DNA from: Nitrosopumilus sp.
GTDB taxonomy: Archaea > Thermoproteota > Nitrososphaeria > Nitrososphaerales > Nitrosopumilaceae
Length of the DNA: 64,000 nucleotides
NCBI GenBank assembly: GCA_965238275.1
Contig: OZ250186.1
Span: forward strand, 2,144,001-2,208,000
Direction: 5' to 3'
Positions within the stretch are counted from its first letter, which is position 1, and each line of letters opens with the position of its first letter. Below are positions 2,017-20,474 of this stretch, in pieces. Below the pieces are notes generated by a model, which had not been told where the DNA came from, searched no databases, and saw nothing but the letters and a program-made list of their open reading frames with translations. Position numbers and translations under genes: made by a program.

Positions 2017-2394
2017 CCGCGCCACGGCATCCGGCAGATCAGGGTTGTTGCCGCACCATTTTGGTTTAGACAGGACACGTTGCAGAACATGCCACAAAAA
2101 GCCGCAGGCATGTCTGCATGATGACATCTTATTCTTGCTATGCATTTTCACACACTGGCATATCTCTGATGGATGCTTCCATAATGGAGTCAGAATCACA
2201 TACCCATGTATGACATCCCAGCTAGCGTGGAATTGGCAAGGGGGGACGTGAACGCTTACCCTGCAGAATGCCCCAATGCGTAAGCGGCTGGGTTTACGCC
2301 TAATTCCACAATGTTGCAGACATCAAGCCCAAACAGTTTGCCTCCAATGCCTCAAATAGGCAAATATAGAGGAAGAACGGCACAGATCTCAGAT

Positions 2395-2562
2395 ATGTGT
2401 GAATGCTCAAAGGTTCACCTGTACGAGGTTGAATTCAAGCTTGATGGCATGACAGTCGTCCCCACCCACAAGAACTGCGGATTCGCCCTGGATCAAAAGC
2501 AGTCCGACAAGTTTCAGAAGGATCTTGTAAGATCATGGGGCATGGAAGACGAAGAGGACTAA
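2395..2562 (+). CDS. Small hypothetical protein (55 aa), possible metal binder
   Basis: MCECSKVH...THKNCG. AT-rich TATA-like box about 30 bp upstream. Confidence 0.65.
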   Translation: MCECSKVHLYEVEFKLDGMTVVPTHKNCGFALDQKQSDKFQKDLVRSWGMEDEED

Positions 2563-2586
2563 AAAATAAAAGGAATGTAAGTTTTT

Positions 2587-2721
2587 CTAGTGTTCAGTGT
2601 TCTTGCATATATCTTGATTGCAATCGCAAGAAGCGTCACAATAACACTCACTCTGCATTGCGCAGTCACATTCGGTGCCGTTCTCGGCCTGTGCTGCACA
2701 TCCACATGCTGCATCTGACAT
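2587..2721 (-). CDS. Metallothionein-like Cys-rich peptide (44 aa)
   Basis: MSDAACGCAAQAENGTECDCAMQSECYCDASCDCNQDICKNTEH: 9 Cys, four CxC motifs. TTTTAAAA box at 2743-2750. Confidence 0.7.
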   Translation of the reverse strand: MSDAACGCAAQAENGTECDCAMQSECYCDASCDCNQDICKNTEH

Positions 2722-2735
2722 ACTATACCTCACAT

Positions 2736-3000
2736 GCACTTGTTTTAAAAGGTTATAGCGGCGAGCGAAAATTCGTGCAAACAGATCTCTCTGTAGCATG
2801 TCCTGATGCTCTTTCCGGCGCTCTGTCAGACCTTCCAATATTGTCGTCGTTGTCGGATCCAAGCCGACCTGTCGAATTGTTCATTCCAGAACCATCCGAT
2901 CCGTGATCCTCGCGCCTTGTGACGACCTCGACACCTGCAATGGTGCCTCCACGATTCCCGTGGGCTTGGCCGCCAGTCTCCTCCGTATGGAGACAGTCAT
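2736..3000 (-). ncRNA. Predicted omegaRNA (scaffold in tnpB 3' tail plus flanking guide), copy 1
   Basis: Hairpin 2872-2899 covaries with copy 2. Sequence is conserved up to the element end and diverges after it. The 5' boundary is approximate. Confidence 0.65.
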
Positions 3001-4198
3001 TATCCAAAATGTTTTTTGCCGCGTTCTTGTCGGCATGGTGGCACCATCCGCATGAGACGCAGACAAATGATTCGCCGTTCCTGGACTTTTTGTCCACTAC
3101 CCCGCAGGCAGCGCACCTCTGGCTTGTATGTGCGTGTTCCACGCGTCTTGAAATTCCGCCTTTCTTTTTCATCTGCCATTCAAGCTGGATCCTGAACTCG
3201 CCCATTCTGGAATAGGCCATCTCGCGGTTCAACCCCGTCTTTGAAGCAGCCCCGTTGGATCGCCTCATCTTGGTCAAATCCAGATCTTCCAGGAACAATA
3301 CGGACAGTCCTTTTGTTATCCGTCTGGCAATGTCGGCCTCGTTGTGTTTTTGCCTGTTTGATGTCTTTTTCAATTCATGTGCTATCTTGCGCCCGATCTC
3401 TTTCCATCTTCTGGAGCCTGCCTGGCATCTTGATCTAAGTGATTTCAGCTGATCAATCCTGTCGCCGTCATGCCTCTTGCAGCCTCCGGGGACATTGTGC
3501 AGTTTTTCGTTCCCATGCTCGTCTGCGACTGCCGCAAGGTGCCTGACTCCAAGATCTAGCCCTGCCTTGCATCCGCCGCCACCGCCTGTCGCGGGTTCGG
3601 GGTCTGGGACTTCTATCTGCAAATGCAGTTTGAATTCGCGATCACCATCCTTGGTCTTGCGCGTGGCCTTGCCTGTGATATCGATCATCTGGAATGACAC
3701 GAACCTGCCTTCCGGGATCTTTACGCGCGGCCTTACTTCCCCGAATCCGGGCAGAAATACGGCTCCACTGTCTCGCAGTTTTGGCTTTGCGCGTGAATTC
3801 AGCGAGCGCAGCCTGGTTGTTTTCCTGCCGCGCCTCATCAGGCCAGACGGCTCGGTCCACCGATTGTGCTTGTACGTTTTCTTTTTCCCCACCAGCTTGA
3901 TCTGTTTCTTGCGCCAGATGCGCTTGTTGTGCTTGAGCCGGTTTGCCTTGCGGAATTTGACTGCCGCCTGGAAAGCCTGTTTTGAGGCGGCCTCATGCAT
4001 GCGGACGCTGTTGGTCAGGTTGAATTCCCTGCGCCATCCTGTTATCAGGTTGTTGACATCAAACTGCGTGATCCGTGAGTGTGCAAGTTTCATCATGATT
4101 GTCATGTCGTAAATGATGTCTGTTTCCCGGGAGCATTTCACGATCTTGCGTGACAGTTCCCGAGATTGTGTTATCTTGATGATTTTACTGACAATCAT
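2753..4198 (-). CDS. tnpB: RNA-guided endonuclease TnpB
   Basis: RuvC-I GLDLG, RuvC-II FLEDL, CxxC-CxxC zinc finger, RuvC-III HADKNAAKNI. All three catalytic acidic residues are present. Confidence 0.92.
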   Translation of the reverse strand: MIVSKIIKITQSRELSRKIVKCSRETDIIYDMTIMMKLAHSRITQFDVNNLITGWRREFNLTNSVRMHEAASKQAFQAAVKFRKANRLKHNKRIWRKKQIKLVGKKKTYKHNRWTEPSGLMRRGRKTTRLRSLNSRAKPKLRDSGAVFLPGFGEVRPRVKIPEGRFVSFQMIDITGKATRKTKDGDREFKLHLQIEVPDPEPATGGGGGCKAGLDLGVRHLAAVADEHGNEKLHNVPGGCKRHDGDRIDQLKSLRSRCQAGSRRWKEIGRKIAHELKKTSNRQKHNEADIARRITKGLSVLFLEDLDLTKMRRSNGAASKTGLNREMAYSRMGEFRIQLEWQMKKKGGISRRVEHAHTSQRCAACGVVDKKSRNGESFVCVSCGWCHHADKNAAKNILDNDCLHTEETGGQAHGNRGGTIAGVEVVTRREDHGSDGSGMNNSTGRLGSDNDDNIGRSDRAPERASGHATERSVCTNFRSPL

Positions 4199-4600
4199 AC
4201 CTGTGGTTGGGATTTATTTTCTTAAAAAGGATCTCAAAAAATTGCACGAACTCCCATGTGTTACGGGCATCCAAACCCGTTGATGTTGTGTGTTGACAAT
4301 GCGTCTGGTCCAGTCCGGTTTGGGTTGGTCGGGCAGTTTTTTAAAGATTTGTGGATCAATTGGGTAATTTTAGGCATGTCCGTGTCCGAACCGGCAGGCA
4401 CTGCGTGCGTATCCAGAAGAATGGTGCACAGCTGCCGCTAGGAATCCCCTCCCCCGTATCCGGAGGAAATGGTAGGCCAAACTCCTACAGTCAATATCAT
4501 TTTCGGCAAGCCGGGGGGACGGAAGGGGGCGTTGAGTCGCCCTCCGCTTGTGCAGGGGCGGCGAAACGCACCCCGGGTTCTCCAGTTTCCCCCAGGACGC

Positions 4601-5672
4601 CTAGACCTTGGATTCGGCAATGCGTTTTATTCTCTGGAATTTTCGTCTTACAAGATCCCTGTCCTGGGTCCTGTACTCGGTGCTGTGCTCAAGCATCTCC
4701 CAGACCCATTCGAGCATCTGCCTGGCCACGGCGACCCTTGCCTTCATGGGTCCTATGCGGGTTGCCAGTCTTTGGTAGCGCGCCCCTATCCGGACATCGT
4801 GCTGGACGGCAACTAACGCGGCCTCGACCATGGCGCGGCGCAGCCAGACGGAGCCGCGTTTTGTGATGCCGCCGGTCCTGACGGTCTCCCCGCTGTTGTG
4901 GTGTTTTGGCACCAGGCCGGCGTATGAGGCCATCTTTTCGGCGTCAGCAAACCTGCTGTGGTCGACTATTTCGGCAAGTATGGTTACTGCCGTAATGTAG
5001 CCTATTCCGGGTATGGTCATGATCAGCTGTGCCCTCCTGTCGCTCATTGCAATCCCGGCTACCTTTTTTTCAAATTTTGCCACCTGCTTTAGTACGGTAT
5101 CGATGGTGGCCAGATGCGACTGCACCGCCATGCGGTCAACCTCCCTCAGGGGCACGGCCTGCAGCCACTCGAGTCCAGGTCCCGTAAAGTCCTCCCTTGG
5201 GCTGCTCGTGCGGGTATTTGGCCAGGATCGCGTGGATGCGGTTCTTTGGGGCGGTGGCGTACATCTTCATGCCCAGGCGGGTGCGGGTCAGTTCGCGCAG
5301 GTCCCGCGCGGGCTTGTCGGCCACGAACGACTCCGGGATCATGTCCAGCCTGCACAGGTCTGCCAGCTTTGCCGAGTCTGCCTTGTCGTTTTTGTAGACG
5401 GTTTCGGTTATGATCTTCGTGTTGTGTGGGTGGGCCAGCAGGGTGTTGATGCCGACATCCTCGAGCATGTCGTGCACGACTATCCAGTAGTTGGCCGTGG
5501 ATTCGCAGACGGCCGTAGCCGGCACGTATCCTTCCTTGCGGATCATCTTGACGAATTCGGTTATTCCCCGGACATTATTGTCAAATTCAGCCTGCCTTAG
5601 TATCTTGTTGGTTTTGCCCTTGATGGTTGAAACGCATTTCTTTTTGTGAACGTCTATTCCAATGTAATACGT
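4601..5672 (-). pseudogene. IS110-family recombinase (DEDD + Tnp_20 domains), frameshifted at ~5180, start codon apparently ACG
   Basis: IGIDVHK, CEST, KNDKADS, IPGIG and AGLVPKHHNSG motifs. Shine-Dalgarno GGAGGTGA 4 nt before ACG at 5672. Confidence 0.9.
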
Positions 5673-5699
5673 GCTATCACCTCCTTTGCAGCATATCGG

Positions 5700-5863
5700 A
5701 CCCGACCAGCGGAAAACTCCCATTCACCGTCAAAGCGGTATTTGACCATCCGCATACCTTGAGTCACTCTTTCGCACGCCATCATAAGTGGCAAGTTCGT
5801 GTCGACTCTCAGGTCCAACAGGGTAAATGCCATGATCACCGTTACAACGGCAACACATGGCGT
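5700..5863 (-). ncRNA. Predicted bridge RNA (target-binding loop 5808-5761, donor-binding loop 5753-5709)
   Basis: Two stem/internal-loop/stem units whose loop arms match the insertion target and the circle junction. Confidence 0.8.
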
Positions 5864-5973
5864 CTTTCGCTTTTCACTATAGTACAGGAACATGGTTTAT
5901 ACAAATAGGATCAACTCCCCCCATACATGGCAGTCGACTGTGATTTCCTGTGCGGTGTCCGGGCAGAACCGGG

Positions 5974-6852: not shown

Positions 6853-7025
6853 ACCATGACAAATAGCAAAATTCCCTTAAAGGGTGTCAGCCCACAAAAT
6901 TTTACAAACCGCACAAAGTCAGAGTCCCCCCTGCTGTCAGTCCGGAATGGGTTCCGGCCGTGCCGCGTGCAAGGGCAGGTTCCAAGCATTTCCTTTAAAT
7001 TGAGAAACAGCCCGCCTTTTATCAA

Positions 7026-7100
7026 GCTCCTATAGTGTAGTCCGGTTAAGCATACTGCCCTCTCAAGGCAGTGACTCGGGTTCAAATCCCGATGGGAGCA
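7026..7100 (+). tRNA. tRNA-Glu(CTC)
   Basis: Cloverleaf with anticodon arm CTGCC-CTCTCAA-GGCAG and T-loop TTCAAAT. Confidence 0.95.
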
Positions 7101-7135
7101 TTGCATTACTAAAATAGTTAGGCTGCGTACACGTA

Positions 7136-7786
7136 GTGTTGAGCCTGAAAGAGATCAAACTCAAAGACGAATACCGGTCTGACACGAGCAACATCACAGA
7201 GGACTTTTTCATCCCGTGCCTTGAAAACTGCACGGAGTATCACAGGTGTACAGAGACGCTCTCAATCAAGGCGCTAATCATGATGGCTACAAGACTTGAC
7301 AACATTACAGACGGCACCACGGTGCTGAGAATGGTCATAGGCCACAGGCTCAGAGTCAGTGACCTGAACATGCTCATAAGGCTGTTCTCTGAAGGAGCCA
7401 GACTTCCCAGGGGAAAGCACGCAAAGACCATTCAACGGATAAAGGATGCAGTCAGACAGGGCAGCATTCAGGTCAGGATTGCAGTACCAAACTCAGATCA
7501 CATCATAGATTCCGTATCAGAAAGGGTTGGGATATTCAGGGACGGCGAGAACAACATGGTGGCATTTACCGGAACTTTTAGGGAGGCCATCGCATCCCCG
7601 ACAAAGGAGTTTGAGGCAATAGATGTCTTTACGTCATGGAATGACATGTCAAGGGTGAAAAGAAAGATGGAGCACTTTGAGCAGCTGTGGCAGAACAAGG
7701 CAAAACATCTGGACGTGTATGACTTTGTGCATGCAGAAAAAAAAAGCCTTCTCAAATACTCCTCGGACTGGCTGATGCAGTGCTAG
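7136..7786 (+). CDS. Stand-alone PLD-like domain resembling N-termini of SF2 helicases, HKD motif degenerate
   Basis: YRSD...DFFIPCL at the start and SERVGIFRD...VAFTG...FEQLW later in the protein. Confidence 0.65.
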   Translation: MLSLKEIKLKDEYRSDTSNITEDFFIPCLENCTEYHRCTETLSIKALIMMATRLDNITDGTTVLRMVIGHRLRVSDLNMLIRLFSEGARLPRGKHAKTIQRIKDAVRQGSIQVRIAVPNSDHIIDSVSERVGIFRDGENNMVAFTGTFREAIASPTKEFEAIDVFTSWNDMSRVKRKMEHFEQLWQNKAKHLDVYDFVHAEKKSLLKYSSDWLMQC

Positions 7787-8349
7787 GCCTCAAACGGCTC
7801 CTCTGGCGTGGCGGACTTGTTTTCATAAAAATTCATCCTGTTAATCTTGTAGTATATGACCTCGCCGCGGCGCTCAATGACTGCAATTATCGGCTCCTTT
7901 CCCATCTGCGTAATCTCGTCAATCTTTTTTTGCAGGGCGCCCATCCTCTCCTGCCGGCCTTCGCTGAGGCCAAATATGAGAAACTTGGCACCCTTTTGTC
8001 CATAGTCCCCCCTCTCATAAACCCTAAAATCAGAACCGAACCCAAAGCCGTCCTTTACCACATAGCCGCGATTGCGAAGGTCGCGATATATCAGGAATCT
8101 TGTCAGTATCTCAGGATCGGTCTTTTGGCATGTGCTGACAAAGGAGTCAAAGTCAGTCTGCCGTCCTCCCTTGGTCAGGGTAAGGCGGTTGGTGTACAGC
8201 AGGTAGAGCGTTTCAAACTGCTTTAAGACAAGTCTCTTTCCTTCGGCGTCTCCAAACCCCTTCTGTTCAAGCTCGTGGATCATCTCCCGGTCGGATATGT
8301 ATACGCGTGAGGAGATCAGCTTACCGGTAACCAGCGGGGTCTCATCCAT
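7783..8349 (-). CDS. endA: tRNA splicing endonuclease subunit
   Basis: YRDLRNRGYVVKDGFGFGSDFRVY motif. Confidence 0.9.
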   Translation of the reverse strand: MDETPLVTGKLISSRVYISDREMIHELEQKGFGDAEGKRLVLKQFETLYLLYTNRLTLTKGGRQTDFDSFVSTCQKTDPEILTRFLIYRDLRNRGYVVKDGFGFGSDFRVYERGDYGQKGAKFLIFGLSEGRQERMGALQKKIDEITQMGKEPIIAVIERRGEVIYYKINRMNFYENKSATPEEPFEA

Positions 8350-8448
8350 GATATGATGGGTGCCTGATGGTTTCCATATAAGCATTGGAATGGCGGCGGT
8401 TTGGGGGACCGGTCGGTTCAGGGGGAGGCGTTATAGGGTTCGTATCCG

Positions 8449-8492
8449 GGCAGGCAGGCAGGCAGGCAGCAGCAGCAGCAGCAGCAGCAGCA
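8449..8492. repeat. Compound microsatellite (GGCA)n(GCA)n
   Basis: Directly visible, intergenic. Confidence 0.9.
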
Positions 8493-8567
8493 CCCCACAA
8501 ATGCGCGGCAGGCGTTGAAGGGATTGGAACCGGCACGGGCCGGTCCGGCGGTTTGGTCACATGCGCA

Positions 8568-10209
8568 GTAAACACTCAGGTCCCCCCAATCCACCTTGTT
8601 AATTCAGACTGCGACTGTCATTGCAGGTACTTCGCATGGAGGAGGCTTGAATATTTTCCAGCCAGGATCCCTGATGAGCGATTCCACTGCGATGCGTGGC
8701 AGTATTCCCTGCTTGTGGCAGGTGCGCGCAACTGAAACAAGTACAGAAAAGACCTTCATTCCCTCCGCCACTGACAGCTTGTGGCGCACGTTCCTCTGTA
8801 GCACGACGGCGTCGCGTATGTCCCGTTCTGCATCGTTATTGTGTGGAGGCATGCCGGGGTACTGCAGATACGTAAACAGGTCGGGGGCCGCACCCTCAAG
8901 GGTGGTCTTGAAGGGGTGGGATTCCCCGTAGGAGGCGGCAATTCCAAGCACGCGTTTTTCCAGGTCCCGACGCTTCGCGGCATCAGCCGTGTCCAGATCC
9001 TTAATGTCATGATACATTTTGAGCAGCCTTTCGTACTGGAGCAGATCATTGCCGCCGTTCCTGATTGCCAGCTTTTCAGCCTCGCGGAGCAGGTGTACCC
9101 AGCACCGCTGTTTGATTGGAAACACGCTGTATCCGGCATACCCGTCCACCACGACAGGAATGCCCAAAAGCCCGGCAAAGTGAAGTTCCAGTACGGCAGC
9201 GGCCCTGGTGTGGGCCACCACCACGTATGTTGCGTCTTTTATGGTGACAAGCCACGCATAGCCCCTCTTGCCGTTGATCTTGATGTATGATTCGTCCATC
9301 TGGATGTAGGGCGCGTCTGCCATCCTGTCCATGATCTCCTTGTATGCGCCCTCCAGGAGGCGCTTTAGCGCCACGCGCGCATTCCATATGGTGTTGGACG
9401 AGATCTCAAACTTGTATAATGCGTTGAAATAGTATGCGACGGTCTGGTCCGTGCTTCTCTTGTTGTAGTATTCCAGCACGAATCCCAGCGCCTTGGGGCC
9501 CAGTGACGTGCCGCACAGCGTGGGATCCGGGGCGGCAGTTATTGTGCCGCATTTGCAGCATGCTGCCTTTTCCATCACGTATGCGATACATTTGATCCCA
9601 ATCGCGTCGTCGTCGGGAAAGTCATAGACCATCTTCACTTTTGGAGCCGTATGCTGGAGCGTCTTGCTTCCGCAGCTGCCGCACCTGCTTACGCCCAGGG
9701 TAATCGTTCTGCCTGCCTTGTTCTTGTGCGAAACTCCGACATGGCCCATGGGCGGTCCGCGGCCGGTATTGTTGTTTTTTGATTCTGCATCGCCTGCTTC
9801 CGGTTTTGTGCCATCTTCTTCGGGTTCTGCATCACCCCCTTTTGGTTCTGCATCCTTTTCACGCTCCTTCCGGAAGGCATCGCGCTCTGCATTGTACATG
9901 GAAATGGTGGATGATGACATGTGCTCGCTTTCGTATGCTGCAAGCTTTCTGTCACGTTCTGCCAGATCAGATCTCAATGAATCTATTTCACGTACAAGCC
10001 TGATTGTCTCCTTGGCCAACGTGTCCTCCATCTCTTTTACCTTGGTTCTGAACATTTCATTCTCTCCGGCCAGTTTTCTGAATTCCTCGCGCAGGAGCGT
10101 AAGATCGGATTTACTCATGTGGTGGTTTTTAGACGCTACGATCTAAATTGTGATGGTCTAAATGGATGCATGTTCTGGTCAATGTTTAGGCAGGGACCTG
10201 AGTGTTTAC
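8568..10209 (-). mobile_element. IS66-family single-ORF element, complete
   Basis: Perfect 17-bp TIR GTAAACACTCAGGTCCC. 8-bp TSD CATGCGCA at 8560-8567 and 10210-10217. Confidence 0.95.
8604..10118 (-). CDS. IS66-family transposase
   Basis: QMDES, VVDGY, QRCWVHLLR and HNNDAERDIR motifs, zinc ribbon and N-terminal coiled coil. Confidence 0.92.
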   Translation of the reverse strand: MSKSDLTLLREEFRKLAGENEMFRTKVKEMEDTLAKETIRLVREIDSLRSDLAERDRKLAAYESEHMSSSTISMYNAERDAFRKEREKDAEPKGGDAEPEEDGTKPEAGDAESKNNNTGRGPPMGHVGVSHKNKAGRTITLGVSRCGSCGSKTLQHTAPKVKMVYDFPDDDAIGIKCIAYVMEKAACCKCGTITAAPDPTLCGTSLGPKALGFVLEYYNKRSTDQTVAYYFNALYKFEISSNTIWNARVALKRLLEGAYKEIMDRMADAPYIQMDESYIKINGKRGYAWLVTIKDATYVVVAHTRAAAVLELHFAGLLGIPVVVDGYAGYSVFPIKQRCWVHLLREAEKLAIRNGGNDLLQYERLLKMYHDIKDLDTADAAKRRDLEKRVLGIAASYGESHPFKTTLEGAAPDLFTYLQYPGMPPHNNDAERDIRDAVVLQRNVRHKLSVAEGMKVFSVLVSVARTCHKQGILPRIAVESLIRDPGWKIFKPPPCEVPAMTVAV

Positions 10210-10259
10210 CATGCGCATTGTGAACCGTTAAAATATGGGCGTCACGGCTTGAGGGCATC

Positions 10260-10774
10260 ATGCATGGTGCCAACTACAGGAACGGAACAGGCCAGCCATT
10301 TACGCGAAAGCAGTACATCAAGGGAAAACCGCAGATAAAGATCGCCAAGTTTCAGGGCGGCAAGAGGGGAACATACCAGTACTGCGTCCAGCTTCTCATT
10401 AATGAAAAGATTCAGATCAGGCACATGGCCATCGAGTCGACCAGACTTGCGGCAAACAAGACCCTGGAGAAGACAGTCGGGGAGACTGGCTACTATTCCA
10501 GACTCAGGATATACCCGCACAATCTCCTCAGGGAGAACAAGATGATTGCCGCCGCAGGCGCAGACAGGCTTCAGGAGGGAATGAGGCGTGCATGGGGCAA
10601 GGCAACAAGCCTCGGGGCAAGGGTCAGACAGGGCCAGTGCATCATAGACCCCGACATTATGTCAACGGGAGTGAACACCTGGAGGCTTCGAAAAAGGCAC
10701 TCAGGGGATCGTGCGTAAAGCTGCCCGGAACCCCGACAATCAAGGTAATCGAGTGGAACAAGCCATCACCATAG
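10260..10774 (+). CDS. rpl10e: 50S ribosomal protein uL16 (L10e) with an apparent frameshift at ~10647-10657
   Basis: LRENKMIAAAGADRLQEGMRRAWGK. The C-terminus YVNGSEHLEASKKALRGSCVKLPG is in another frame. Confidence 0.85.
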
Positions 10775-11029
10775 GCCCTCCAGCTGCTGCTTTTTGCCCC
10801 TTACAAACGCCAAGAATTCCTCAAACTCTTCTTTTGTCGGTTCGCGCCCAAGCACCCTCCTTGACTGATAGTAGAATGCGTTATAGAGCCTCCCCATCGC
10901 TATCCCCAGTACAAACGACCGGGAATAGTCTGCCTCAGAAAGGGATCTGGCCAGCTGCAGTATCTCATCCCTGTTTGAGACAGTCTCCTGAATCTTCTGT
11001 TCCAGCCGCTCAAGGATCACCCCATTCAC
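10766..11029 (-). CDS. Hypothetical protein
   Basis: 87-aa ORF with upstream TTTTAA box. Confidence 0.7.
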   Translation of the reverse strand: MNGVILERLEQKIQETVSNRDEILQLARSLSEADYSRSFVLGIAMGRLYNAFYYQSRRVLGREPTKEEFEEFLAFVRGKKQQLEGLW

Positions 11030-11092
11030 GACTAATGTTGGTCTTTACTGTTAAAAACAGTTTAATATTCAAATCCGGATTCTAGAACTGTC

Positions 11093-11169
11093 GCAGTTAT
11101 AGTATAGTTTGGTTATTATGCGAGCTTGCCAAGTTCGTGACCCGGGTTCAAATCCCGGTAACTGCACCA
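11093..11169 (+). tRNA. tRNA-Gly(GCC), CCA encoded
   Basis: Acceptor GCAGTTA/TAACTGC and anticodon arm CGAGC-TTGCCAA-GTTCG. Confidence 0.95.
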
Positions 11170-11597
11170 TCGGGTTCCAGGGGCGTCAGGGCCTTCCTGA
11201 TTATTGCCAGGGCATCCTGTGCCCTTGCAGGATTGGGCAGCTGAATCATAAAGACGTTATCCCTGCCGTAGTGGGATCTTGGGGAGGATAGTGCAAGCAT
11301 CGTGGCATCTGCAAGGGACTCGAAGAATGCCAGATCGGTTTTTGCATTGACCATGAATCTTTCAACCATGCCGCCCTTTGAGAACTCTAGAACAACATCC
11401 ACAAAGACATGCCCCAGCCCGTCCTGCAGGATGTTCAGATTGGTGTCGATCGAGAGCGGCCTGCCTGCAATCTCAGACAGCAGATCGTCATACCGGCTCG
11501 CCTCAATAACAATGCACGGGACCCTCCTGCCGTCAAAGTCAAAGGTGGTGACTCCGTCATGCACCCGGCTGAGCAGTCTCTTTAATTCGTCAGGCAT
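11148..11597 (-). CDS. Hypothetical protein
   Basis: 149-aa ORF whose start overlaps the antiporter stop. Confidence 0.75.
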   Translation of the reverse strand: MPDELKRLLSRVHDGVTTFDFDGRRVPCIVIEASRYDDLLSEIAGRPLSIDTNLNILQDGLGHVFVDVVLEFSKGGMVERFMVNAKTDLAFFESLADATMLALSSPRSHYGRDNVFMIQLPNPARAQDALAIIRKALTPLEPDGAVTGI

Positions 11598-12966
11598 CGT
11601 CGTCCTGCTCGTCCATTGAAAGTACCTTGTCTCCGGCCCGTACCATGTATGGTGTAAGAAACGAGGTGATTATCGCGATCATTCCCATCAGCGGAAAGAG
11701 AAAGGCGCTGACTGCGCCTATGTCCACGCCGGTCTTAATAATTACGATTGAGAATTCGCCTCTTGGCGCAGCCAGGGTAAATGCGGAGCGAAACACGCCT
11801 CCGCGCCGCTGGCGGAATATCAGGCTGGCAATCGTGTTTCCCCCAAACTTTGTACCGATGGCCACTGCAATCAGTGCGACGGCTATGAGCATATAGTCGC
11901 CAATATTGGTAATGTCCATCAGGGCGCCTATGGATATGAAAAATATTGCCACGAACATGTCCTTGATCGGGCTTGAGAGCAGCTTGGCCACTTCGGCCGA
12001 CTTTGATTCGGCCACAAGCACCCCTGCCAAAAACGCCCCGATTGCAACAGAGAGCCCCACGACGTTTGTCAGCAGGGCGTATCCAAAGCAGATTCCAAGA
12101 ATGGTAAGCAGTAGGATTTCACGATGCTCGGTTGCAGCAACCCTGTCGATCAGGGGCGTGATCAGGCGGGTGCCGACTGCAAACGTTCCAAAGATCAGTG
12201 CGGCGGCGACTGCCACAACAGTTGCAACCGACTCTGGAGATACGGTTCCAATCAGGGCAACGGACTGCAGCGAGCTGAGCAGTATTACGGCAATTACATC
12301 CTCCACAATCAGGATTCCCAGAACCCGGATGGACGACTTTTGTTGGATCTTCCCTGCATCCTCCAGAATCTTGACGATTACAGCAGTGCTGGAGATGGAC
12401 AGGGCCGCTGCAATAAACAGGGCGTCCATGAACTCCAGGCCAAGCGCAGTCGCCACGTAAAATATGGCCCCCAGCGACATGAGCAGCCCCATCGTGCCCA
12501 CGCCTATGGTGGCCCGGCCTATGCTTCGAATCTTTGCGTACGGGAACTCGATTCCAATGACAAACAGTAGCAGTATGACTCCGATATCGGCAAAGAGGTG
12601 CAGGGCAGAGATGTCAGCCAGCAGCCCCACCTCGCCGAAGATGCTGGGATCCCTCCCGTCAGGCAGAATCCATGACCAGAACGGCGAGAGAGGGCCTATC
12701 AGCATTCCCGCAAAGAGATATCCGATGATCAGCGGCTGCCGTATCTTAAAGAATGCAAGGGCGACTACGGCCCCAATAATCATGATAAAAGCCAGATCAG
12801 TGATAAAGTTGGTATGGTAAAATCCAGGAGTGACCTGGTCAATAATGGTGGTTACGGTACTGTTGAACGAGTCTTGGATTGTTGACGGATCCAGCTGGAG
12901 TAAGAAGTTCTGCATACTAACAGTTTGTACAGTATGCTTAAAAATAGATGCCATGGCAGATGGCAC
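11590..12966 (-). CDS. CPA2/Kef-type cation:proton antiporter (start uncertain, probably later)
   Basis: Many TM helices, SISSTAVIVKIL, GILIVED, GAFLAG and PRGEFS motifs. Confidence 0.88.
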   Translation of the reverse strand: MPSAMASIFKHTVQTVSMQNFLLQLDPSTIQDSFNSTVTTIIDQVTPGFYHTNFITDLAFIMIIGAVVALAFFKIRQPLIIGYLFAGMLIGPLSPFWSWILPDGRDPSIFGEVGLLADISALHLFADIGVILLLFVIGIEFPYAKIRSIGRATIGVGTMGLLMSLGAIFYVATALGLEFMDALFIAAALSISSTAVIVKILEDAGKIQQKSSIRVLGILIVEDVIAVILLSSLQSVALIGTVSPESVATVVAVAAALIFGTFAVGTRLITPLIDRVAATEHREILLLTILGICFGYALLTNVVGLSVAIGAFLAGVLVAESKSAEVAKLLSSPIKDMFVAIFFISIGALMDITNIGDYMLIAVALIAVAIGTKFGGNTIASLIFRQRRGGVFRSAFTLAAPRGEFSIVIIKTGVDIGAVSAFLFPLMGMIAIITSFLTPYMVRAGDKVLSMDEQDDDA

Positions 12967-13230
12967 CCATACCCCGGAACTGACGCGGATCCGGCATCAC
13001 ATAGCCTGCAGGCCAAACCGCACCATGCCGTAGGACGTATTGGACTCACGGATTCGTGCGATCCGGAGATACGGCGCATGCCAAATCCCTTTATTGTCAT
13101 GGAACCGCACACACACATAGAGACAGTCACATGACCAAGTGCGGGGTGATGAGTAGGTCGACTGAAACGGGATGTGGAGACATGACCTGGGGTATTTGAC
13201 TGCATTAGGTTATGCCGTGTTTGGGTTCTG

Positions 13231-14720
13231 TAGTGAAAAGCGAAAGTTCGTGCAATTTTTTGGATCCCTTTTTAAGAAAACAAATTCTATCCACATACAT
13301 GATTGTCAGCAAACGCGTTACGATAATGCAGTCTCGGGAATTGTCACGCAAGATTGTAAAATGTTCCCTGGAAACAGACGTCGTTTACGACATGACCATA
13401 CTGATGAAACTGGCCCATCCCAAAATGACCCAGTTTGACGTGAACAACCTGATAACTGGCTGGCGCAAAGAATTCAACCTGACCAACAGCGTCCGCATGC
13501 ATGAGGCCGCGTCCAAGCAGGCCCTCCAGTCGGTAATCAAATTTAAGAAATCAAATGTGAAAAAACACGCAAAACGGATCTGGCGCAAGAAGCAGATAAA
13601 GCTCGGCAAGGCCAGAACGTACAGGCACAACAGGTGGACGGATCCGTCCAGCCTGATGAGGCGCGGCAAGAAGACAACCAGGCTGCGTTCGCTGAATTCG
13701 CGCGGAAAGCCAAAACTGCGAGACGACGGCACGGTGTTCCTGCCCGGACTCGGAGGGGTAAGGCCGCGCACGGAGATCCCCGAAGGCAGGTTTGTGTCGT
13801 TCCAGATGATCGACATTACAAACAAGGTCACGCGCAAGACCAATGACGGTGATCGCAGGTTCAAACTGCATTTGCAGGTAGAAGTTCCAGACCCCGAACC
13901 AGCTGCAGGCTGCAAGGCAGGGATCGATCTGGGCGTCAGGCACCTTGCGGCAGTCGCAGACGAGGACGGGAACGAAAAACTGTACAATGTTCCTGGCGGG
14001 TGCAGGCGTCACGACGGCGACAAGATTGACCGGTTGAAGTCACGCCGGTCAAAATGCGTGCGCGGTTCGCGCAAATGGGGAAAGGTCGGCCGCATGATAC
14101 AACGTGAATTGAAAAAGATATCCGACAGGCAGAAACACAACGAAACGGGCATTGCCAGGCGGATAACAAAAGGCCTGTCTGCGGTATTTTTGGAAGACAT
14201 GGATTTGACCAGGATGAGGAGATCCAACGGAAAGGCACCAAAGACCGGGTTGAACCGCGAGATGGCATACTCTAGGATGGGGGAGTTTCGGAGCCAGGTT
14301 GAATGGCAGATGAAAAAGAAAGGCGGAGTTTCAAAACGCGTGGAATACAAGAATACCAGCCAGAGGTGTGCTGTTTGCGGAACTGTGGACAAAAAGTCCA
14401 GAAACGGCGAATCCTTTGCCTGCACTGCATGCGGGTGGTACCACCACGCCGACAAGAACGCGGCAAAAAATATTTTGGATAATGACTGCCTCCACATGGG
14501 GGCTGGCGGCCAAGCCCACAAAAACAGTGGAGGCACCATTGCAGGTGTCAAGGTCGTCACAAGGCGCGAGGATCACGGTTCAGGCAGTCCTGCAAGGGAC
14601 AGCTTGACAAGTCGGCTTGGACCCGACAACGATGATTTTGGAAGATCTGACAGAGCGCCGGAAAGGGCATCAGGGCATGCTACGGAGAAATCTGTTTGCA
14701 CAAACTTTCGCTCGCCGCTA
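13231..14720 (+). mobile_element. TIR-bounded TnpB element copy 2, intact ends, no transposase
   Basis: Left end TAGTGAAAAGCGAAAGTTCGTGCAA vs reverse complement of right end TAGCGGCGAGCGAAAGTTTGTGCAA. TA at both termini. Confidence 0.85.
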
Positions 14721-14780
14721 TGGTACCAGTCACACTGCAGAGCCAGAACCCAGACGGCCCGCATAAGGAACCGCCAATAG
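13299..14780 (+). CDS. tnpB: RNA-guided endonuclease TnpB
   Basis: GIDLG, FLEDM, zinc finger and HADKNAAKNI. Close paralogue of 2753-4198; start set by alignment (MIVSK). Confidence 0.92.
   Translation: MIVSKRVTIMQSRELSRKIVKCSLETDVVYDMTILMKLAHPKMTQFDVNNLITGWRKEFNLTNSVRMHEAASKQALQSVIKFKKSNVKKHAKRIWRKKQIKLGKARTYRHNRWTDPSSLMRRGKKTTRLRSLNSRGKPKLRDDGTVFLPGLGGVRPRTEIPEGRFVSFQMIDITNKVTRKTNDGDRRFKLHLQVEVPDPEPAAGCKAGIDLGVRHLAAVADEDGNEKLYNVPGGCRRHDGDKIDRLKSRRSKCVRGSRKWGKVGRMIQRELKKISDRQKHNETGIARRITKGLSAVFLEDMDLTRMRRSNGKAPKTGLNREMAYSRMGEFRSQVEWQMKKKGGVSKRVEYKNTSQRCAVCGTVDKKSRNGESFACTACGWYHHADKNAAKNILDNDCLHMGAGGQAHKNSGGTIAGVKVVTRREDHGSGSPARDSLTSRLGPDNDDFGRSDRAPERASGHATEKSVCTNFRSPLWYQSHCRARTQTARIRNRQ
14470..14740 (+). 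ncRNA. Predicted omegaRNA, copy 2
   Basis: GNRA hairpin 14580-14607 covaries with copy 1. The guide would be the flank after 14720. The 5' boundary is approximate. Confidence 0.65.
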
Positions 14781-15158
14781 TCATCACATGCAGCAGTGGC
14801 AGATGCCAAGACATGGTTCTGATGAACGGTGCATAAAAGCAGTCGAGTGTCACATCAGGCAGATTCTGCACAAGGCAGGCATGCTGCAGGGGATACAGCA
14901 TCAGGCCACAGGCATGGCATTACAGGAATGGAAGGGGCAGACGCCTCTAACACGTGGCGGCAGGCCGTGCAATTTGGATCCACAAAGTATTAGTAGTACC
15001 GTACTATACAGTACCATATGATTCGATGCCAGCACTGCACCATGCCATTCACGGCAACTGCAGACGGGATGGCCGAAAAGACATTTCATGAGATTCTCCA
15101 CGGTCCCAAAGTAGTCAACTAGCCCAACTCTTTTATGATAATTTTTTTAATGGAATGC

Positions 15159-16661
15159 ATGGCAAGTGCCGCAAAAAAGACTACTGGGACTGCAAAGAAG
15201 AGGGAGCCGAGTCCGGCCGCACTTTTAAAGAAGGTCGCATCAGTCTCGGACTCTACAAAGGCGCTGCAAAAGGAGATCAAGGCAATGTCAAAGATCTTTG
15301 CGGGCAACCAAAAGATACTTGTCTCGATGAAGGGTATGATGGATGCGCTGGCATCAACGCTGGAGCATGTCCAAAAGCACTCAAGGCAGATCAGCATAAT
15401 GGAGGAGGATACGCAAAAGCTGTATGCCGGCCTGAATCGCGCAAAGTCCCAGTCGGACATTATAGGCAGGCTCAACGATCAGACTGCAAGGCTGCAGGAG
15501 GAGGTGAACAGGGTCCAGAAGATACAGGAGGCATCAAACACCGGGGAGCTTGCACGGCAGGTCGAGGACAGCATGCATTCAATCCAGAACAACTCCAAGA
15601 TGATCATCAGGATTGCACAGAGAATCGACGAGATAAGGGACGAGCTCAGGGATGTCTCGGGAAGGACAGACTCGCTTTTGGAGATTGGCAGCGACATTGA
15701 CAGGCTCAAAAACAGCATGGATGACATATCAGAAAAGACCACAAGGCTGGATGCAGGGACGCATGTGATTGAAGACATCAAGGGCGAGCTTGGAAGGATT
15801 GCCGAGAAGGTCTCGTCAGATTCCAATCTTGGCTCCGAACTGGACGCAATCAGGTCGACGATTGACGCCATATCGGCAAAGGCCTCAAGGATCGACTCGC
15901 TGGGCGGCGTCATAGAGAATCTTCAGAACCAGTTTGAGGCAGTTGCCGCAGATGCCACGGACACAAACAGCATGTGCGCAAGGTCAGTCAGTGATCTTGC
16001 AGGCAAGATAGACAGGATAGAGACCGATATCGGGACACTGTCACGCAGGGCAGACTCGACGGCGTTTGTAGGGGAGGGACTCAAGTCGGTCCAGTCGGAT
16101 CTGAACAACCTCAAGGAAGGCATGCTTGAGAGGACCGACGGCATAGAGCAGAAGATTGCATCTGCCTCGGAGATGATAAGGAGGCAGGATGCAGGAAACG
16201 CAGAATTTCACAAAAAAACGGAGAGCATATTCAAGGATATTCAGGCGATCAAGAGCGCGGCAAGCAAGGCATCAGGGGACTCTTCAAGGGAGATGATGGC
16301 GCTGCTAAGGCTCTCAGAGTACCAGTCGGGCATCAGGATGAATGCAGAATCCAAGTACGGGGATTCGGTGGATCTGGAGAAGATGGCGCAGCAGACTGTG
16401 CAGATTATCAACTTGTTTGACAGAATCTCAATTGAGGCAGGTGAGGAGATCCCGCTTCCCCGCGAGGTAAGGCAGTGGGCCATAAGCAAGATTCTGGACT
16501 GTGCTGACAGGTGGGAGATTCGGTTTGAGGAGGTCTATTCCATGCTGAAAAATACGATGGGCAAAAAAACCCTCAACGAGTCCCTGAGAATTCAGCAGGT
16601 AAGGGACATTTACGGAATCAGGGCAGTAGACAAGATCAGGCGGGAACTGGACATATCCTAG
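15159..16661 (+). CDS. Long coiled-coil protein
   Basis: ~500-aa heptad-rich ORF. Confidence 0.8.
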   Translation: MASAAKKTTGTAKKREPSPAALLKKVASVSDSTKALQKEIKAMSKIFAGNQKILVSMKGMMDALASTLEHVQKHSRQISIMEEDTQKLYAGLNRAKSQSDIIGRLNDQTARLQEEVNRVQKIQEASNTGELARQVEDSMHSIQNNSKMIIRIAQRIDEIRDELRDVSGRTDSLLEIGSDIDRLKNSMDDISEKTTRLDAGTHVIEDIKGELGRIAEKVSSDSNLGSELDAIRSTIDAISAKASRIDSLGGVIENLQNQFEAVAADATDTNSMCARSVSDLAGKIDRIETDIGTLSRRADSTAFVGEGLKSVQSDLNNLKEGMLERTDGIEQKIASASEMIRRQDAGNAEFHKKTESIFKDIQAIKSAASKASGDSSREMMALLRLSEYQSGIRMNAESKYGDSVDLEKMAQQTVQIINLFDRISIEAGEEIPLPREVRQWAISKILDCADRWEIRFEEVYSMLKNTMGKKTLNESLRIQQVRDIYGIRAVDKIRRELDIS

Positions 16662-18749
16662 ACGCCGACCTCGTCGATCCTGTTGAGTTGTTCCTTCTTC
16701 CTCTTCAGGGCCGCAAATATTCCCAGAATTACGGCAATCCACATGGTGGCAAGGAGTATGTTGGTGATGCTGACGTACATGTATGGCATTGCATCAGTGA
16801 CGTTGGACTGCAGCAGCAACGCCCTGCTGTTGATGTCCATCATTCCGGTATGGTACGCAGAACTGTCCTTTGGGACGGTTGCAATCTTTTGAATGCTCTC
16901 AGATATGGTGTTGATGTCAGTCTGGATTCTAAGGAAGTTTGTAGACTCTGTGGCAAAGAGCCATACGGGGTTTTTGGCAACAAGCTCGCCGCCCGTGTCG
17001 GTCGTTTCAGGCAGCTTTGTAAGCACGATCGTCATGTCATTATTGATTGCAGCCAGATGGGCCTGGATGACTGCAGGATCAGATGAGCCGACTGTCAAGG
17101 TTACCCCTTATCCTGTCAAGCGGGTATATGTCAGAGTTGTACCCGTAGAGTGCCATAAATCCGCCAAACATGATAACTGCAACTATTCCCACCATCGAAA
17201 GCTTGTAAACCCTGTTAGCCATCTTCTCCTTCTCAGTCATTACAGGATTGGGGTTTGATTTATTTCTTTTATACCGGGTGTGCGACAGGCTCATGTAGGC
17301 GATATAAAAGAACCCGACCACCTGCAGTCCGATGATCGGTGCAAAGATTGGATTGTTTGAGAATATGGCAATGAATATCCCGGCCACGCCGTACACTCCA
17401 AAGAATATCTCCAGGAGGGTGGTCTGGGTAAAGGGCAGGTTGTATGCCTTGTTCTTCCAGCCGTCATCGTTTTTGATTATGCCGTACTTGGGAGTTCGAA
17501 GAAACTCGTTCTTTCTTCCAACCACGGCATCAAAGACTGCGACGGTATTGTTGACTGACATTCCGGCGTTATACACCAGCAGGGCCGGAAGTATCTTTGC
17601 CTTTGACTTCCACGACTTGTTGTACATCTTTTGTATTATCATGATGTATGCGCCCGGCCCCATCGCAAGGTATGTTGCAATCGTCAGTGCCGGAAGAAGG
17701 CTGATTATGTAGAGGTCCACCCTCCCTGCCAGCAGTACAGGCAGTGCCAGAAACTGTATGAGCATCAGCGGGTACACGATGTGGCGCGTCAGCTGAATGA
17801 ATGCCTGGATCTTGGTCTCCACTGCAACTGTGCGCTTGATGACAATGTCAGAGAGCAGCTTTATTGCACACTGTATGGAGCCCTTTGCCCAGCGAAACTG
17901 CTGGCGTTTTGCCGCATTCATCTGGACTGGAAGCTCTGCATCCACCACAACGTCAGGCAAAAAGATACACTTCCATCCCTTCATCTGCGCCCTGTAGCTC
18001 AGGTCCAGATCCTCTACCAGCGTGGCCGTATGCCAGCCCCCGGAATCCTCAATGCAGTCCCGCTTCCAGATTCCGGCGGTTCCGTTAAAGTTCATAAAGA
18101 GACTGGAGTTGCTTTTTGCCTTTTGTTCTATCAGAAAATGAAAGTCAAGGCTCAGCGCCTGCGCCTGGGTTATTGCAGAGTAGTTCTCGTTGACGTGCCC
18201 CCAGCGGCACTGTACCAGGCCTATGCCCGGCTCTGAAAAGTACGGGATTGCCTTCCTGAGAAACCACTCAGGCGGGATAAAGTCTGCATCAAATATGGCA
18301 ACAAGCTCCGTGTCTGTCGTCTCCATTGCATGCTTGAGGGCGCCGGCCTTGTATCCCCTCCTTGTTCCGCGCCGGACATGCTCTATTTGAAATCCCTGCT
18401 TTTGGTAGTCACGGACGGTGTCCCTGAGCAGGTCCACGGTGTCATCATCAGAGTCGTCCAGCACCATTATCCTCATCTCGTCCTTGGGGTAGTCCAGGCT
18501 GCACACTGCACTGACAAGCCTCCTTGCGACGTACTTTTCATTGTATATTGGAAGCTGGATGGTAATTGACGGGGTGCCCAGATCAGCAGTGGGCAGAACG
18601 TCATTTCTCCTGCTGGACAGGTATGCCAGATAGTAAAAGTTGCAGGTGTACGCAGTGATTATAACCGCAGATATCATGAAGATGCTGAGCATAAAGCTTA
18701 CAAACGGAGTATAGTCCATGTTCCCTAATGCCTGAGAGGCGCCATTCAC
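16658..18749 (-). CDS. GT2 cellulose-synthase-like glycosyltransferase, C-terminal domain separated by a frameshift at ~17090
   Basis: DDS, KAGAL, DAD, ED and QQFRW motifs. The downstream frame (VGSSDPAVIQ...) overlaps the upstream stop and lacks a convincing start. Confidence 0.85.
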
Positions 18750-18767
18750 TATTTATAGTTGCAAGCG

Positions 18768-19715
18768 CTATTTCGGCTCGAATATCTTGATTGCCTGGGG
18801 CGGACAGACCCCCTCGCAGGCAAGACAGAATATGCAGTCAGGCTCCTTTGACATCAGCGGCTTCTTCTCGGATCCGGGGTTTCCCGGGGTGTCAAACCAC
18901 TCGTAGACGCTGACCGGACAGGCCTCGATGCAGCCGCCGTCGGCAATACAGATGTCATAGTCTACAGATACAAACTCGCCCCACACGCCCATGATTCCGT
19001 TGCTGGTGCCTCTTCGGCCCCAGGTCTTGATGGTGTGTTCTGCAGCATCATACGAGAGGGACGGCTTGAGTTTTGATTTGAATTCGATGTCGATTGGGCC
19101 ATCTTTTGCGCCGTCTGGAATCTCGATTGCGCCGTCGTCTTCCTCGTCCAATTCCTCGGTAGCCTCTATCGGCTTTGGCTTTGCGCCAAGGACGATCTTG
19201 GCCAGCGGGGTCAGATCCTCAAGTTTTTGAAGTGCCACCACCTCGGAGATCTTTTCAGATTTTACATAATATGCGACAAGCTTGTCTGCAAGGATGGTGT
19301 TGCGCAGTATCGTATCGATGATCATCTTGGCAAAGTGATCGGCTTTTTTGCGGTAGTCCTGAACCCAGTTGGGATCACCGAACTTTTCAATCGGGAATAT
19401 CTGGTATATGATATCAACTACTTCCCCGGTTACAATCTCCACCGTAATTGACAGGTTCACCTCCTCGTAGCCTTTAGCGTCAGGATCATTCATGTTTCGC
19501 TCCGTCCACCTGTACGTGGCAAAGATCCTGTCAGCGTACATGTCCATCTCAAATGACTTTTTGAGGCCGTCATGAACCGACTTTAATTCCACAGGATCCT
19601 CAAGTTTGACTGGCAGTCTGTAAAGGCCAAGCTTGAAGCCGTGCAGCGGATAGACGCCGCGTTTGGCAGTGGGTGCTTCCATCGACCATACGCGATCCTT
19701 TAGGAGCAGTGACAT
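18768..19715 (-). CDS. Protein with C-terminal 4Fe-4S dicluster ferredoxin domain
   Basis: CIADGGCIEACP and CIFCLACEGVCP. Confidence 0.88.
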   Translation of the reverse strand: MSLLLKDRVWSMEAPTAKRGVYPLHGFKLGLYRLPVKLEDPVELKSVHDGLKKSFEMDMYADRIFATYRWTERNMNDPDAKGYEEVNLSITVEIVTGEVVDIIYQIFPIEKFGDPNWVQDYRKKADHFAKMIIDTILRNTILADKLVAYYVKSEKISEVVALQKLEDLTPLAKIVLGAKPKPIEATEELDEEDDGAIEIPDGAKDGPIDIEFKSKLKPSLSYDAAEHTIKTWGRRGTSNGIMGVWGEFVSVDYDICIADGGCIEACPVSVYEWFDTPGNPGSEKKPLMSKEPDCIFCLACEGVCPPQAIKIFEPK

Positions 19716-20164
19716 TCAATATTGATTGTCCGGATTTAGTTAAAAAGGTTGTCAAATGTAATTTGCGGTGTAGTATCCAAGAATCATGTCGCCTCTGATC
19801 TTGATTGTCAATCATTGATATCTGCCTCCATCCATTTGGGGTTCTGCTGTCTTATCTCGTCAGTCACACGCTTGTTGCGGAATGCCATCATGGGAGTCTC
19901 GTAGTTGTCAATGTCCAGAGAAAAGTGCAACCTGTCGGCGTTATAGTATTCGACGTAATCGTCCAGATCCTTGTAGTGCCATATCTCATCTTCGATCGTT
20001 CTGTGGAACCTTTCCAGTTTTCCGTTGGTCTGCGGGTGATATGGCCGTGAATTGATCAGTCCTACGTTGAGGTTCAGCAGCTCGTTTTCAAAGAATGTTG
20101 GGATCCAGGTTCCGGTCTGCTTCTTGCGGCCACCCCTGCCGACGAAGCACGAACCGTTGTCAGA

Positions 20165-20474
20165 CAGGATTGTCGCCGGCGTCCCGAACCTGCTGACTGC
20201 CTGACGGAGTACTGTTACCGCGTTCTCCGAAGTGGCCTCCCTGAACAGCGCAGCGCCTGTGATGCACCTGGAGGCGTCGTCAAGGTACGTAATCAGGTTC
20301 AGATTCCTCATGCGCTGATCAGGATTGTCGCCGGCGTCCCGAACCTGCTGACTGCCTGACGGAGTACTGTTACCGCGTTCTCCGAAGTGGCCTCCCTGAA
20401 CAGCGCAGCGCCTGTGATGCACCTGGAGGCGTCGTCAAGGTACGTAATCAGGTTCAGATTCCTCATGCGCTGAT
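20165..20474. repeat. 155-bp tandem duplication in the IS481 integrase domain
   Basis: Units 20165-20319 and 20320-20474 read as identical. Confidence 0.92.

Follow-up and report, generated by a model that had tools for sequence, protein, structure and literature searches.

A TnpB gene and its omegaRNA between IS630-type ends in a Nitrosopumilus genome: an element probably mobilised in trans

The TnpB element and its limits

The window considered here is a 64,000-nucleotide stretch from a Nitrosopumilus sp. (assembly GCA_965238275.1, contig OZ250186.1, positions 2,144,001 to 2,208,000; coordinates are those of the window unless the genome is named), and the genome holding it is a single contig of 2.217 Mb, 99.9% complete and with 52.7% G+C. 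Two copies of a mobile element lie in the window, each with a gene for TnpB, an RNA-guided nuclease, between imperfect inverted repeats of 25 bp; in copy 2, which is the main subject of this report, the gene is followed by the template of a putative structured RNA (omegaRNA, or right-end element RNA, reRNA) that reaches the end of the element (Table 1). The arrangement is probably that of a transposase-less transposon of the IS630/Tc1-mariner type which relies on transposases encoded elsewhere in the same genome.

The limits of copy 2 are exact. Its site is empty in two public runs from two studies (X14, contig of 2053 bp, and X16, contig of 3320 bp), in which the contigs join 13228 to 14721 and omit 1492 bases, corresponding to the 1490-bp element plus one TG. 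There are three differences on each side of the joint in X14 and one on each side in X16, two letters fit either flank, and the empty site observed reads GGGTTC-TG-GTACCA. The relative G017, with flanks ∼82% identical, is also empty at this site (ATGCC-12 nt-TG-GTACCAGT), with a single TG and a spacing equal to that of the present genome minus the element. At the site of copy 1, G017 has TTTTAAAAGGT-TG-GTACAAAAACATGG where the present genome has ..AAAAGGT-TA-[copy 1]-TA-GTACAGGAACATGG. Each of these three independent empty sites (the X14/X16 joint and the two sites of G017) contains one dinucleotide, and a 2-bp target duplication located outside the repeats is thereby shown. Intergenic DNA of more distant relatives (64-70% identity) is too diverged for exact empty sites, and G017 and the public contigs were used.

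The left and right 25-mers of copy 2 agree at 20 of 25 positions (21/25 for the consensus of the main subfamily), and a 16-nt core of the repeat occurs three times in the window, versus 0.05 occurrences expected. Throughout the genome every left end takes the form N-C-TA-[TAGTG...] and every right end [...CGCTA]-TA-N (25 left and 24 right ends), which places the terminal TA within the conserved repeat and the dinucleotide that is duplicated outside it. This outer dinucleotide is TA at 23 of the 24 right ends, the sole exception being copy 2 with TG on both of its sides. An autonomous relative in the genome G132 has AA on both sides, and non-TA duplications thus match across the insertion in both cases. 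The G132 copy (L135; G132:C1:2353726-2355339), which is IS630a-like and flanked AA..AA rather than TA..TA, is the second matching non-TA duplication seen.

An earlier note on this DNA, made from its letters without database searches, had described the 25-bp imperfect repeats (20/25) bounding 13231-14720 and the same ends in copy 1, and both descriptions hold, the left end of copy 1 being split by an IS110-family insertion. The TA duplication that it proposed stands as a 2-bp duplication and falls as to its place and identity, since it lies outside the terminal TA and is TG in copy 2. Likewise, the expectation of one TA at empty alleles of relatives was borne out for a single dinucleotide, which proved to be TG. 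The empty sites that had been reconstructed, GTTCTG-TA-TGGTAC and GTACTA-TA-TAACCT, give way to GGGTTC-TG-GTACCA for copy 2 and, for copy 1, to a site in G017 where a single dinucleotide separates ..AAAAGGT from GTACA... Both the YR-TA-YR target pattern and the shared left flank GTWCTRTA, offered as a candidate target-adjacent motif (TAM), are artefacts of the misplaced duplication, and only the C before the duplication is conserved.

Table 1. Positions of the TnpB element copies, their parts and associated elements (window positions unless the genome is named)
Feature	Position	Strand	Remarks
Mobile element, copy 2	13231-14720		1490 bp (1.49 kb); inverted ends and one intact TnpB gene
Left copy of target duplication, TG in copy 2 (TA elsewhere)	13229..13230	+	Empty alleles in X14/X16 contigs and G017
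Left terminal inverted repeat, TAGTGAAAAGCGAAAGTTCGTGCAA	13231..13255	+	Identical or near-identical at 25 genomic left ends
A/T-rich box, CTTTTTAAGAAAAC	13268..13281	+	∼25 nt before ATG; conserved between copies
tnpB open reading frame, 493 aa	13299..14780	+	Continues across the guide-RNA region, the right repeat and 20 codons of flank
omegaRNA (reRNA) scaffold (predicted), ∼230 nt	14490..14720	+	Ends at the right end of the element and includes the right repeat; covariation
Right terminal inverted repeat, reverse complement TAGCGGCGAGCGAAAGTTTGTGCAA	14696..14720	-	24 right ends in the genome
Right copy of target duplication, TG	14721..14722	+	Right ends in the genome and empty-allele contigs
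Putative omegaRNA guide flank	14723..14742	+	By analogy with TnpB/Fanzor systems
Mobile element, copy 1	2756..5879	-	81% identical to copy 2; flanking TA at 2754-2755 and 5880-5881
Copy 1 tnpB open reading frame, 481 aa	2753-4198	-	TnpB gene of copy 1
IS110-family element within the left repeat of copy 1	4253..5863	-	Between TTGCACGAACT and CTTTCGCTTTTCACTA, CT on each side
Intact IS630-family element, ∼1.09 kb	genome 1873255-1874346		337-aa uninterrupted protein with HTH_32/HTH_29/HTH_23 and DDE_3

Copies in the genome and recent mobility

In addition to fragments, the genome contains about 22 copies of the element in which both ends are present or nearly so. Of 17 full-length copies that were aligned, eight are mutually 97-99% identical. 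Copy 2 is a singleton whose nearest genomic copy is ∼82% identical. Its site is empty in strains with flanks more than 99% identical to the window, and X14 and X16 also hold contigs 98.6-99% identical to the interior of copy 2 with different flanks; a single copy at differing places in near-identical strains is what cut-and-paste transposition predicts. The 97-99% identical copies and the insertion polymorphism argue for recent movement in this lineage.

The TnpB protein and the omegaRNA

The tnpB product matches OrfB_IS605 (aa 192-309) and Cas12f1-like_TNB (aa 328-392) above the Pfam cut-offs, with scores of 55.8 and 59.7 bits. When aligned to ISDra2 TnpB (8bf8/8exa), the protein of copy 2 retains the RuvC D/E/D residues and the CxxC..CxxC zinc finger (motifs GID.., ..LED.., ..HADKNAA and the CxxC pairs), with the RuvC glutamate in its canonical position. 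ISDra2 TnpB is the closest natural solved structure (E 8e-11), and a mimivirus TnpB-like protein also matches (3e-8). On these motifs the protein is a canonical TnpB, and nothing in its sequence points to a special kinship with Fanzors. A search of a 5.8-billion-protein collection returned a narrow clade, with 29 clusters at E ≤1e-20, none of which is named.

The conserved part of the protein stops near aa 395, and there is no stop codon within the element. At the right end the frame reads ..CCG CTA|TA N, and the duplication together with a flanking A or G makes a stop codon in 14 of the 24 right flanks; otherwise the frame continues into the flank, as in copy 2. Third-position bias is 0.31 in the tail (aa 396-465) versus 0.50-0.54 in the body; the constraint on the tail acts on RNA and not on protein. 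The frame is intact in 11 of the 17 full-length copies. The A/T-rich box upstream of the start codon is a possible TATA box for a leaderless tnpB mRNA, a role that we presume from the usual architecture of archaeal promoters.

A structured 3′ RNA of the kind that defines TnpB/OMEGA systems is supported by covariation over the aligned copies. The scaffold starts directly after the last conserved TnpB motif and ends at the final base of the element, the last ∼230 nt of which are more conserved than the remainder. In an alignment (A2) of 20 copies (nine from the present genome, G000, ten from G017 and one from G132), eight helices comprising 46 pairs were found, with compensatory changes in 22 of the 46; paired cells amounted to 97.2%, versus 31-44% with the partners slid by one to three columns, and the observed covariation was reached by none of 500 shuffles. 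In helix 8, GAGC in the scaffold pairs with GCTC inside the right repeat. No Rfam family matched 13100-14900 at E values up to 1. A 3′ hairpin (ACAGA..UCUGU) immediately preceding the right repeat, for which compensation in G017 appears only in a shifted alignment register, was left uncounted, and 3′-terminal fragments at genome 35139-35481 and 193617-194029, considered as stand-alone omegaRNA mini-elements, have no left repeat and were read as 5′-truncated copies.

In TnpB/Fanzor systems the guide is described as following the right end or the 3′ duplication (PMC13565253, section 6.2), and by this analogy the 20 nt beyond the right duplication of copy 2 would serve as the guide. With its catalytic D/E/D and zinc finger preserved and a 3′ scaffold that covaries, this TnpB looks active and guided.

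Candidate partner transposases

The element has the terminal inverted repeats and the 2-bp duplication, normally TA, of IS630/Tc1-mariner transposons. These transposons carry an HTH (helix-turn-helix) plus DDE_3 transposase between their ends, where in this element the only open reading frame with a family match is tnpB, and it is therefore classed as a non-autonomous derivative of IS630 type. The earlier note had suggested searching the genome for the repeats and for a DDE gene between the same ends; the repeats were recovered at 25 left and 24 right ends, and neither a DDE transposase nor a separate HTH protein was found between them in the 17 full-length copies of the present genome or at 39 loci of relatives. 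One locus of G132, at which a transposase stands beside a small TnpB fragment, was read as a neighboring insertion.

The complete one-contig genome has no match to Y1_Tnp (PF01797) or to Resolvase, the serine recombinase domain (PF00239), and 34 matches to DDE_3, the catalytic domain of IS630-type transposases. Among the IS630-family elements, an intact one at genome 1873255-1874346 interrupts a (GTA)n run, the phase of which is kept only if one TA was duplicated. Of all non-self 25-mers in the genome, an end of this element, TAGTGGCGATCAAAAGTTCTTGCAA, comes closest to the TnpB right repeat (21/25, four mismatches); this equals the distance between the consensus left and right TnpB repeats, and the repeats of copy 2 themselves differ at five positions. 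With the reversed genome as a null, no 25-mer was found at six or fewer mismatches to the right repeat. The TnpB left repeat agrees at 19 of 25 positions with the end of the resident IS630-family element on the C-terminal side of its transposase. The same transposase group has a second intact member in the genome, 63% identical, and two broken ones.

A similar correspondence is found in G017. Its TnpB elements with 59% protein identity have TACTGACGCGCAAAAGTT-type (TAC-type) ends, and those with 46-48% protein identity have ends of the TAGTGAC.CGCCAAAGT / TAGTGACGAGCAAAAGTT type (TAG-type); all are ∼1.49 kb long and TA-flanked. The ∼1.1-kb IS630-like elements of G017 show the same two end types as its TnpB groups. 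Among 121 sampled genomes of the genus, the TnpB clade was detected in four and the transposase type in 23, with all four falling within the 23; this co-occurrence is only consistent with dependence, kin not being independent samples.

A more distant TnpB of the genus (34-36% identical) was detected in G132 (L074; G132:C1:1701029-1704760) between perfect 23-bp inverted repeats, GGGAATTACATACAAAAGTTACA, flanked by an apparent direct repeat of 7-8 bp (CTGCATG). This would be a TnpB in another kind of duplication-making transposon from the same genus.

Target preference and the TAM

The base before the left duplication is C at all 36 resolved left ends (25 in the present genome, 10 in G017 and 1 in G132), and its mirror image, a G after the right duplication, is found at 12 of 35 right ends (10/24, 2/10 and 0/1, respectively). 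As a control, 17 autonomous copies of the partner type were examined in G132, with proteins 90-95% identical to that of the partner in the present genome; here 23 of the 24 ends, left and right alike, have a C adjoining the duplication, which gives a C-TA-G target. Smaller samples of the partner type are looser, with C at 3/6 ends in the present genome and 5/8 in G017.

The left-flank C was considered as a TAM and downgraded on account of this control, as the autonomous relatives also prefer C-TA-G and the left C can therefore stem from the transposase. The left/right asymmetry is the sole hint of a TAM in these data: a one-sided TAM filter might explain a strict left C together with a relaxed right side, with asymmetric ends as an alternative explanation.

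Mode of mobilization

Taken together, the end homology, the duplication, the recent mobility and the finding of no other fitting class of transposase are the grounds on which we regard the element, with good though not complete confidence, as a non-autonomous cut-and-paste transposon of the IS630/Tc1-mariner type that carries TnpB and its omegaRNA as cargo and is moved in trans by resident IS630-family transposases, as the earlier note had proposed; the empty alleles, the transposase census and the matched subfamilies in G017 all support that proposal. The movers would most likely be the HTH+DDE_3 transposases that this genome encodes in its ∼1.1-kb IS630-family elements. These enzymes would bind both repeats and mobilize the element, and transcription through its right end would produce the omegaRNA with the right flank as its guide. 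TnpB would read the left flank and 5′ duplication (C-TA) as its TAM and so would cut the unoccupied site only, and, by analogy with other TnpB/Fanzor systems, repair of such a cut by conversion from an occupied copy could bring about homing or retention. The right repeat would have a dual role, as presumed transposase site and as the final part of the scaffold, within the open tnpB frame. In the account given of Fanzors in duplication-making transposons, the TAM includes the 5′ duplication, and the scaffold contains the 3′ one (PMC13565253, section 6.2).

A more specific reading, which we put forward tentatively and would not at present prefer to its negation, is that a canonical TnpB-omegaRNA was captured independently by an archaeal IS630-type transposon that is now without transposase, that a TAM consisting of C and the 5′ duplication filters one side of a symmetric C-TA-G choice, and that the 25-bp repeat has a triple use as transposase site, scaffold and reading frame. 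If true, prokaryotes would have in this family, still mobile in natural populations, a counterpart of the Fanzor1/mariner arrangement, and the one-sided filter would account for the contrast between C at 36/36 left ends and G at 12/35 right ends.

Several points weigh against mobilization in trans by the resident enzymes. The ends of the best partner differ from those of the TnpB element at 4-6 of 25 positions, and that partner is present as a single copy in this genome. The autonomous copies show C-TA-G on both sides (23/24) where the TnpB elements have the right-hand G at 12/35, so that one enzyme working identically on both does not fit perfectly, and the strict left C cannot be assigned to a TAM when a transposase preference would also yield it. 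The tnpB frame is broken in 6 of the 17 full-length copies examined, and the action of a resident transposase on these ends is itself inferred from end similarity and co-occurrence. The divergent partner ends, the lone partner and the mismatched right target, together with the want of a close genomic source for copy 2 (nearest ∼82%), would suit a history in which the ends descend from an IS630-type ancestor with no cognate transposase left, the copies now being stranded or moved by an outside enzyme (from a virus, a plasmid or another strain) and the ∼1.1-kb elements being relatives and not drivers. We consider this unlikely, as eight copies are 97-99% identical and insertions are polymorphic among strains more than 99% identical in their flanks, as no fitting transposases other than IS630-type DDE genes were found in this lineage, and as a lone relocating copy is what cut-and-paste movement leads one to expect.

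The broken frames bear also on the idea that TnpB is no longer a transposon nuclease and rides as a passenger that has been domesticated (as a guide-RNA-directed repressor, for instance) or is in decay, with the 3′ RNA in some other role. This appears very unlikely given the catalytic D/E/D and zinc finger kept in copy 2, the frame kept in 11/17 copies with a third-position bias of 0.50-0.54 in the body, and the location of the tnpB gene, which is always inside mobile ends. Least credible of all, and close to negligible, is that the element belongs to the IS200/IS605 or IS607 type and is moved by a Y1 or serine TnpA, with the end similarity and TA incidental (TA being the crossover dinucleotide in IS607). 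Those families are the most frequent carriers of TnpB (PMC13565253, section 5.1), and a serine recombinase likewise leaves an identical dinucleotide on both sides. Yet no Y1_Tnp or Resolvase match exists in the complete genome, the ends are homologous to IS630-family ends, and the empty alleles show a true duplication; moreover TG..TG and AA..AA covary on both sides, which a mismatched serine crossover would presumably not produce. Mobilization in trans by IS630-family transposases remains the preferred reading.

Insertions into the repeats and other features of the window

The left end of copy 1 is split by a 1.6-kb IS110-family insertion into an inner (4242-4252) and an outer part (5864-5879). 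The inserted element contains DEDD_Tnp_IS110 (5139-5723) and Transposase_20 (4604-5155) matches to Pfam in two separate frames. The insertion point of this family is constant, in the core of IS630-type repeats (..GAACT|CTTT(C/T)G..) with CT on both sides; insertions recur at genome 827312-828604, 502654-504359 and 1289006-1289808, and fragments end at genome 1926105, 1920771, 1089476 and 1091322. The element was found in two different TnpB copies and in several transposase-type IS630 ends, and G132 has copies with 86% identity at two places. The element resembles a parasite that targets IS630-type repeats, for which the targeting of Tn21-family repeats by IS4321 and IS5075 offers a parallel. 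A further TnpB copy, at genome 883621-891002 (L131), is split by a 5.9-kb insertion that includes a DDE_3 gene of another IS630 subfamily, and the genome has three identical copies of that gene.

Just left of the copy-2 site, a block of ∼75 nt (13135-13212) is conserved in many genomes of the genus (77-86% identity), unlike the intergenic DNA around it. Its GTGATGA and CTGA motifs give the impression of a C/D-box small RNA. Rfam gave no match over the block in a scan from 13100 onwards, and ARAGORN, run on 1-20000, placed tRNAs only at 7026-7100 and 11093-11169, with none in the block. In a loose repeat search, a stretch containing ..GTACGGCACGCCAAGGATCGTGCAAGCCTACAAGCCCGG.. was detected at ∼14 places in the genome (e.g., 299807, 328147, 373951 and 2209316) and at a locus of G017 (L053); in G017 a similar sequence forms the 3′ end of a transposase-like frame (407 aa) belonging to an unrelated insertion sequence, which is situated ∼400 bp from where copy 2 is missing. 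Window positions 15-2259 are 98% identical to genome 1213985-1216191, representing a 2.2-kb duplicated segment or other mobile element. The window also contains an exact tandem doublet of 155 nt (20165-20474), an array with a 21-nt period rich in AAAGACAAAAAGCTGGAACAG (21789-22016) and a tandem pair of 102 nt with 93% identity (25626-25877).

Comparison with known systems

The kind of arrangement described here is already in print, and the present family is a further example of it. Altae-Tran et al. (2023, PNAS; PMC10691335) describe a large TnpB branch, 'DDE-6', that is linked to IS630-family DDE transposases and a separate HTH protein and has symmetrical ends, report inverted terminal repeats in all six of their DDE-associated TnpB branches, and include solo TnpBs moved in trans, with which the discussion in a 2026 review concurs (PMC13565253). 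The premise of the earlier note, that only eukaryotic Fanzors keep the company of IS630/Tc1/mariner elements, is outdated in this light. The present family shares with 'DDE-6' and the solo TnpBs a TnpB in an IS630-family transposon with symmetrical ends, a TnpB 3′ end within 250 bp of the transposon end and the idea of mobilization in trans (PMC10691335). Unlike 'DDE-6', as far as the published description of the branch allows comparison, it is TnpB-only in every copy seen, with no DDE or HTH gene in cis, and its partners are ordinary ∼1.1-kb IS630-family elements without TnpB in a Nitrosopumilus, an ammonia-oxidizing archaeon. In the literature collection searched, no paper mentions 'TnpB' together with 'Nitrosopumilus'.

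Why a DDE element that leaves breaks should retain a homing nuclease is posed as an open question in the 2026 review (PMC13565253, section 6.2). The family offers a natural and still-mobile example of an RNA-guided nuclease in a prokaryotic cut-and-paste DDE transposon, and its ∼20 copies, its simple TAM prediction and the partners matched to it in at least two genomes should make it useful for that question. The TnpB itself is compact (∼395 residues are conserved), and its candidate TAM is short.

Fanzor1 was reportedly found by Bao and Jurka, in 2013, in Tc1/mariner and other eukaryotic DDE transposons. Like that arrangement, the present element places an RNA-guided TnpB-like nuclease inside an inverted-ended, TA-duplicating element, and its 5′ duplication would be expected in the TAM and its 3′ duplication between scaffold and guide (PMC13565253, section 6.2). 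Unlike Fanzor1, it is prokaryotic and encodes a short (∼395 aa conserved), canonical TnpB with the RuvC glutamate in the canonical position.

IS630 itself inserts at CTAG with duplication of TA. The present element resembles the IS630 family in its ∼25-bp inverted ends, TA duplication, C-TA(-G) context and the HTH+DDE_3 proteins of its partners, and departs from it in having no transposase, a relaxed right target base (G at 12/35) and one copy at TG. A TA duplication is given for both IS630 and Mariner in the 2026 review (PMC13565253).

With the TnpB-omegaRNA of ISDra2 (PDB 8exa, 8bf8, 8h1j) the element has in common the domain order, the catalytic residues, the zinc finger and a structured 3′ RNA reaching the right end. 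The carriers are distinct: ISDra2 moves by Y1-type single-strand 'peel and paste' without a duplication, whereas the present carrier is of DDE type with inverted ends and a duplication, and its open reading frame extends through the entire RNA region. IS200/IS605 elements differ in the same way, the present genome having no Y1 match and the element having inverted ends and a duplication, and the element is set apart from IS607 by its duplication and by a genome without a serine-recombinase match.

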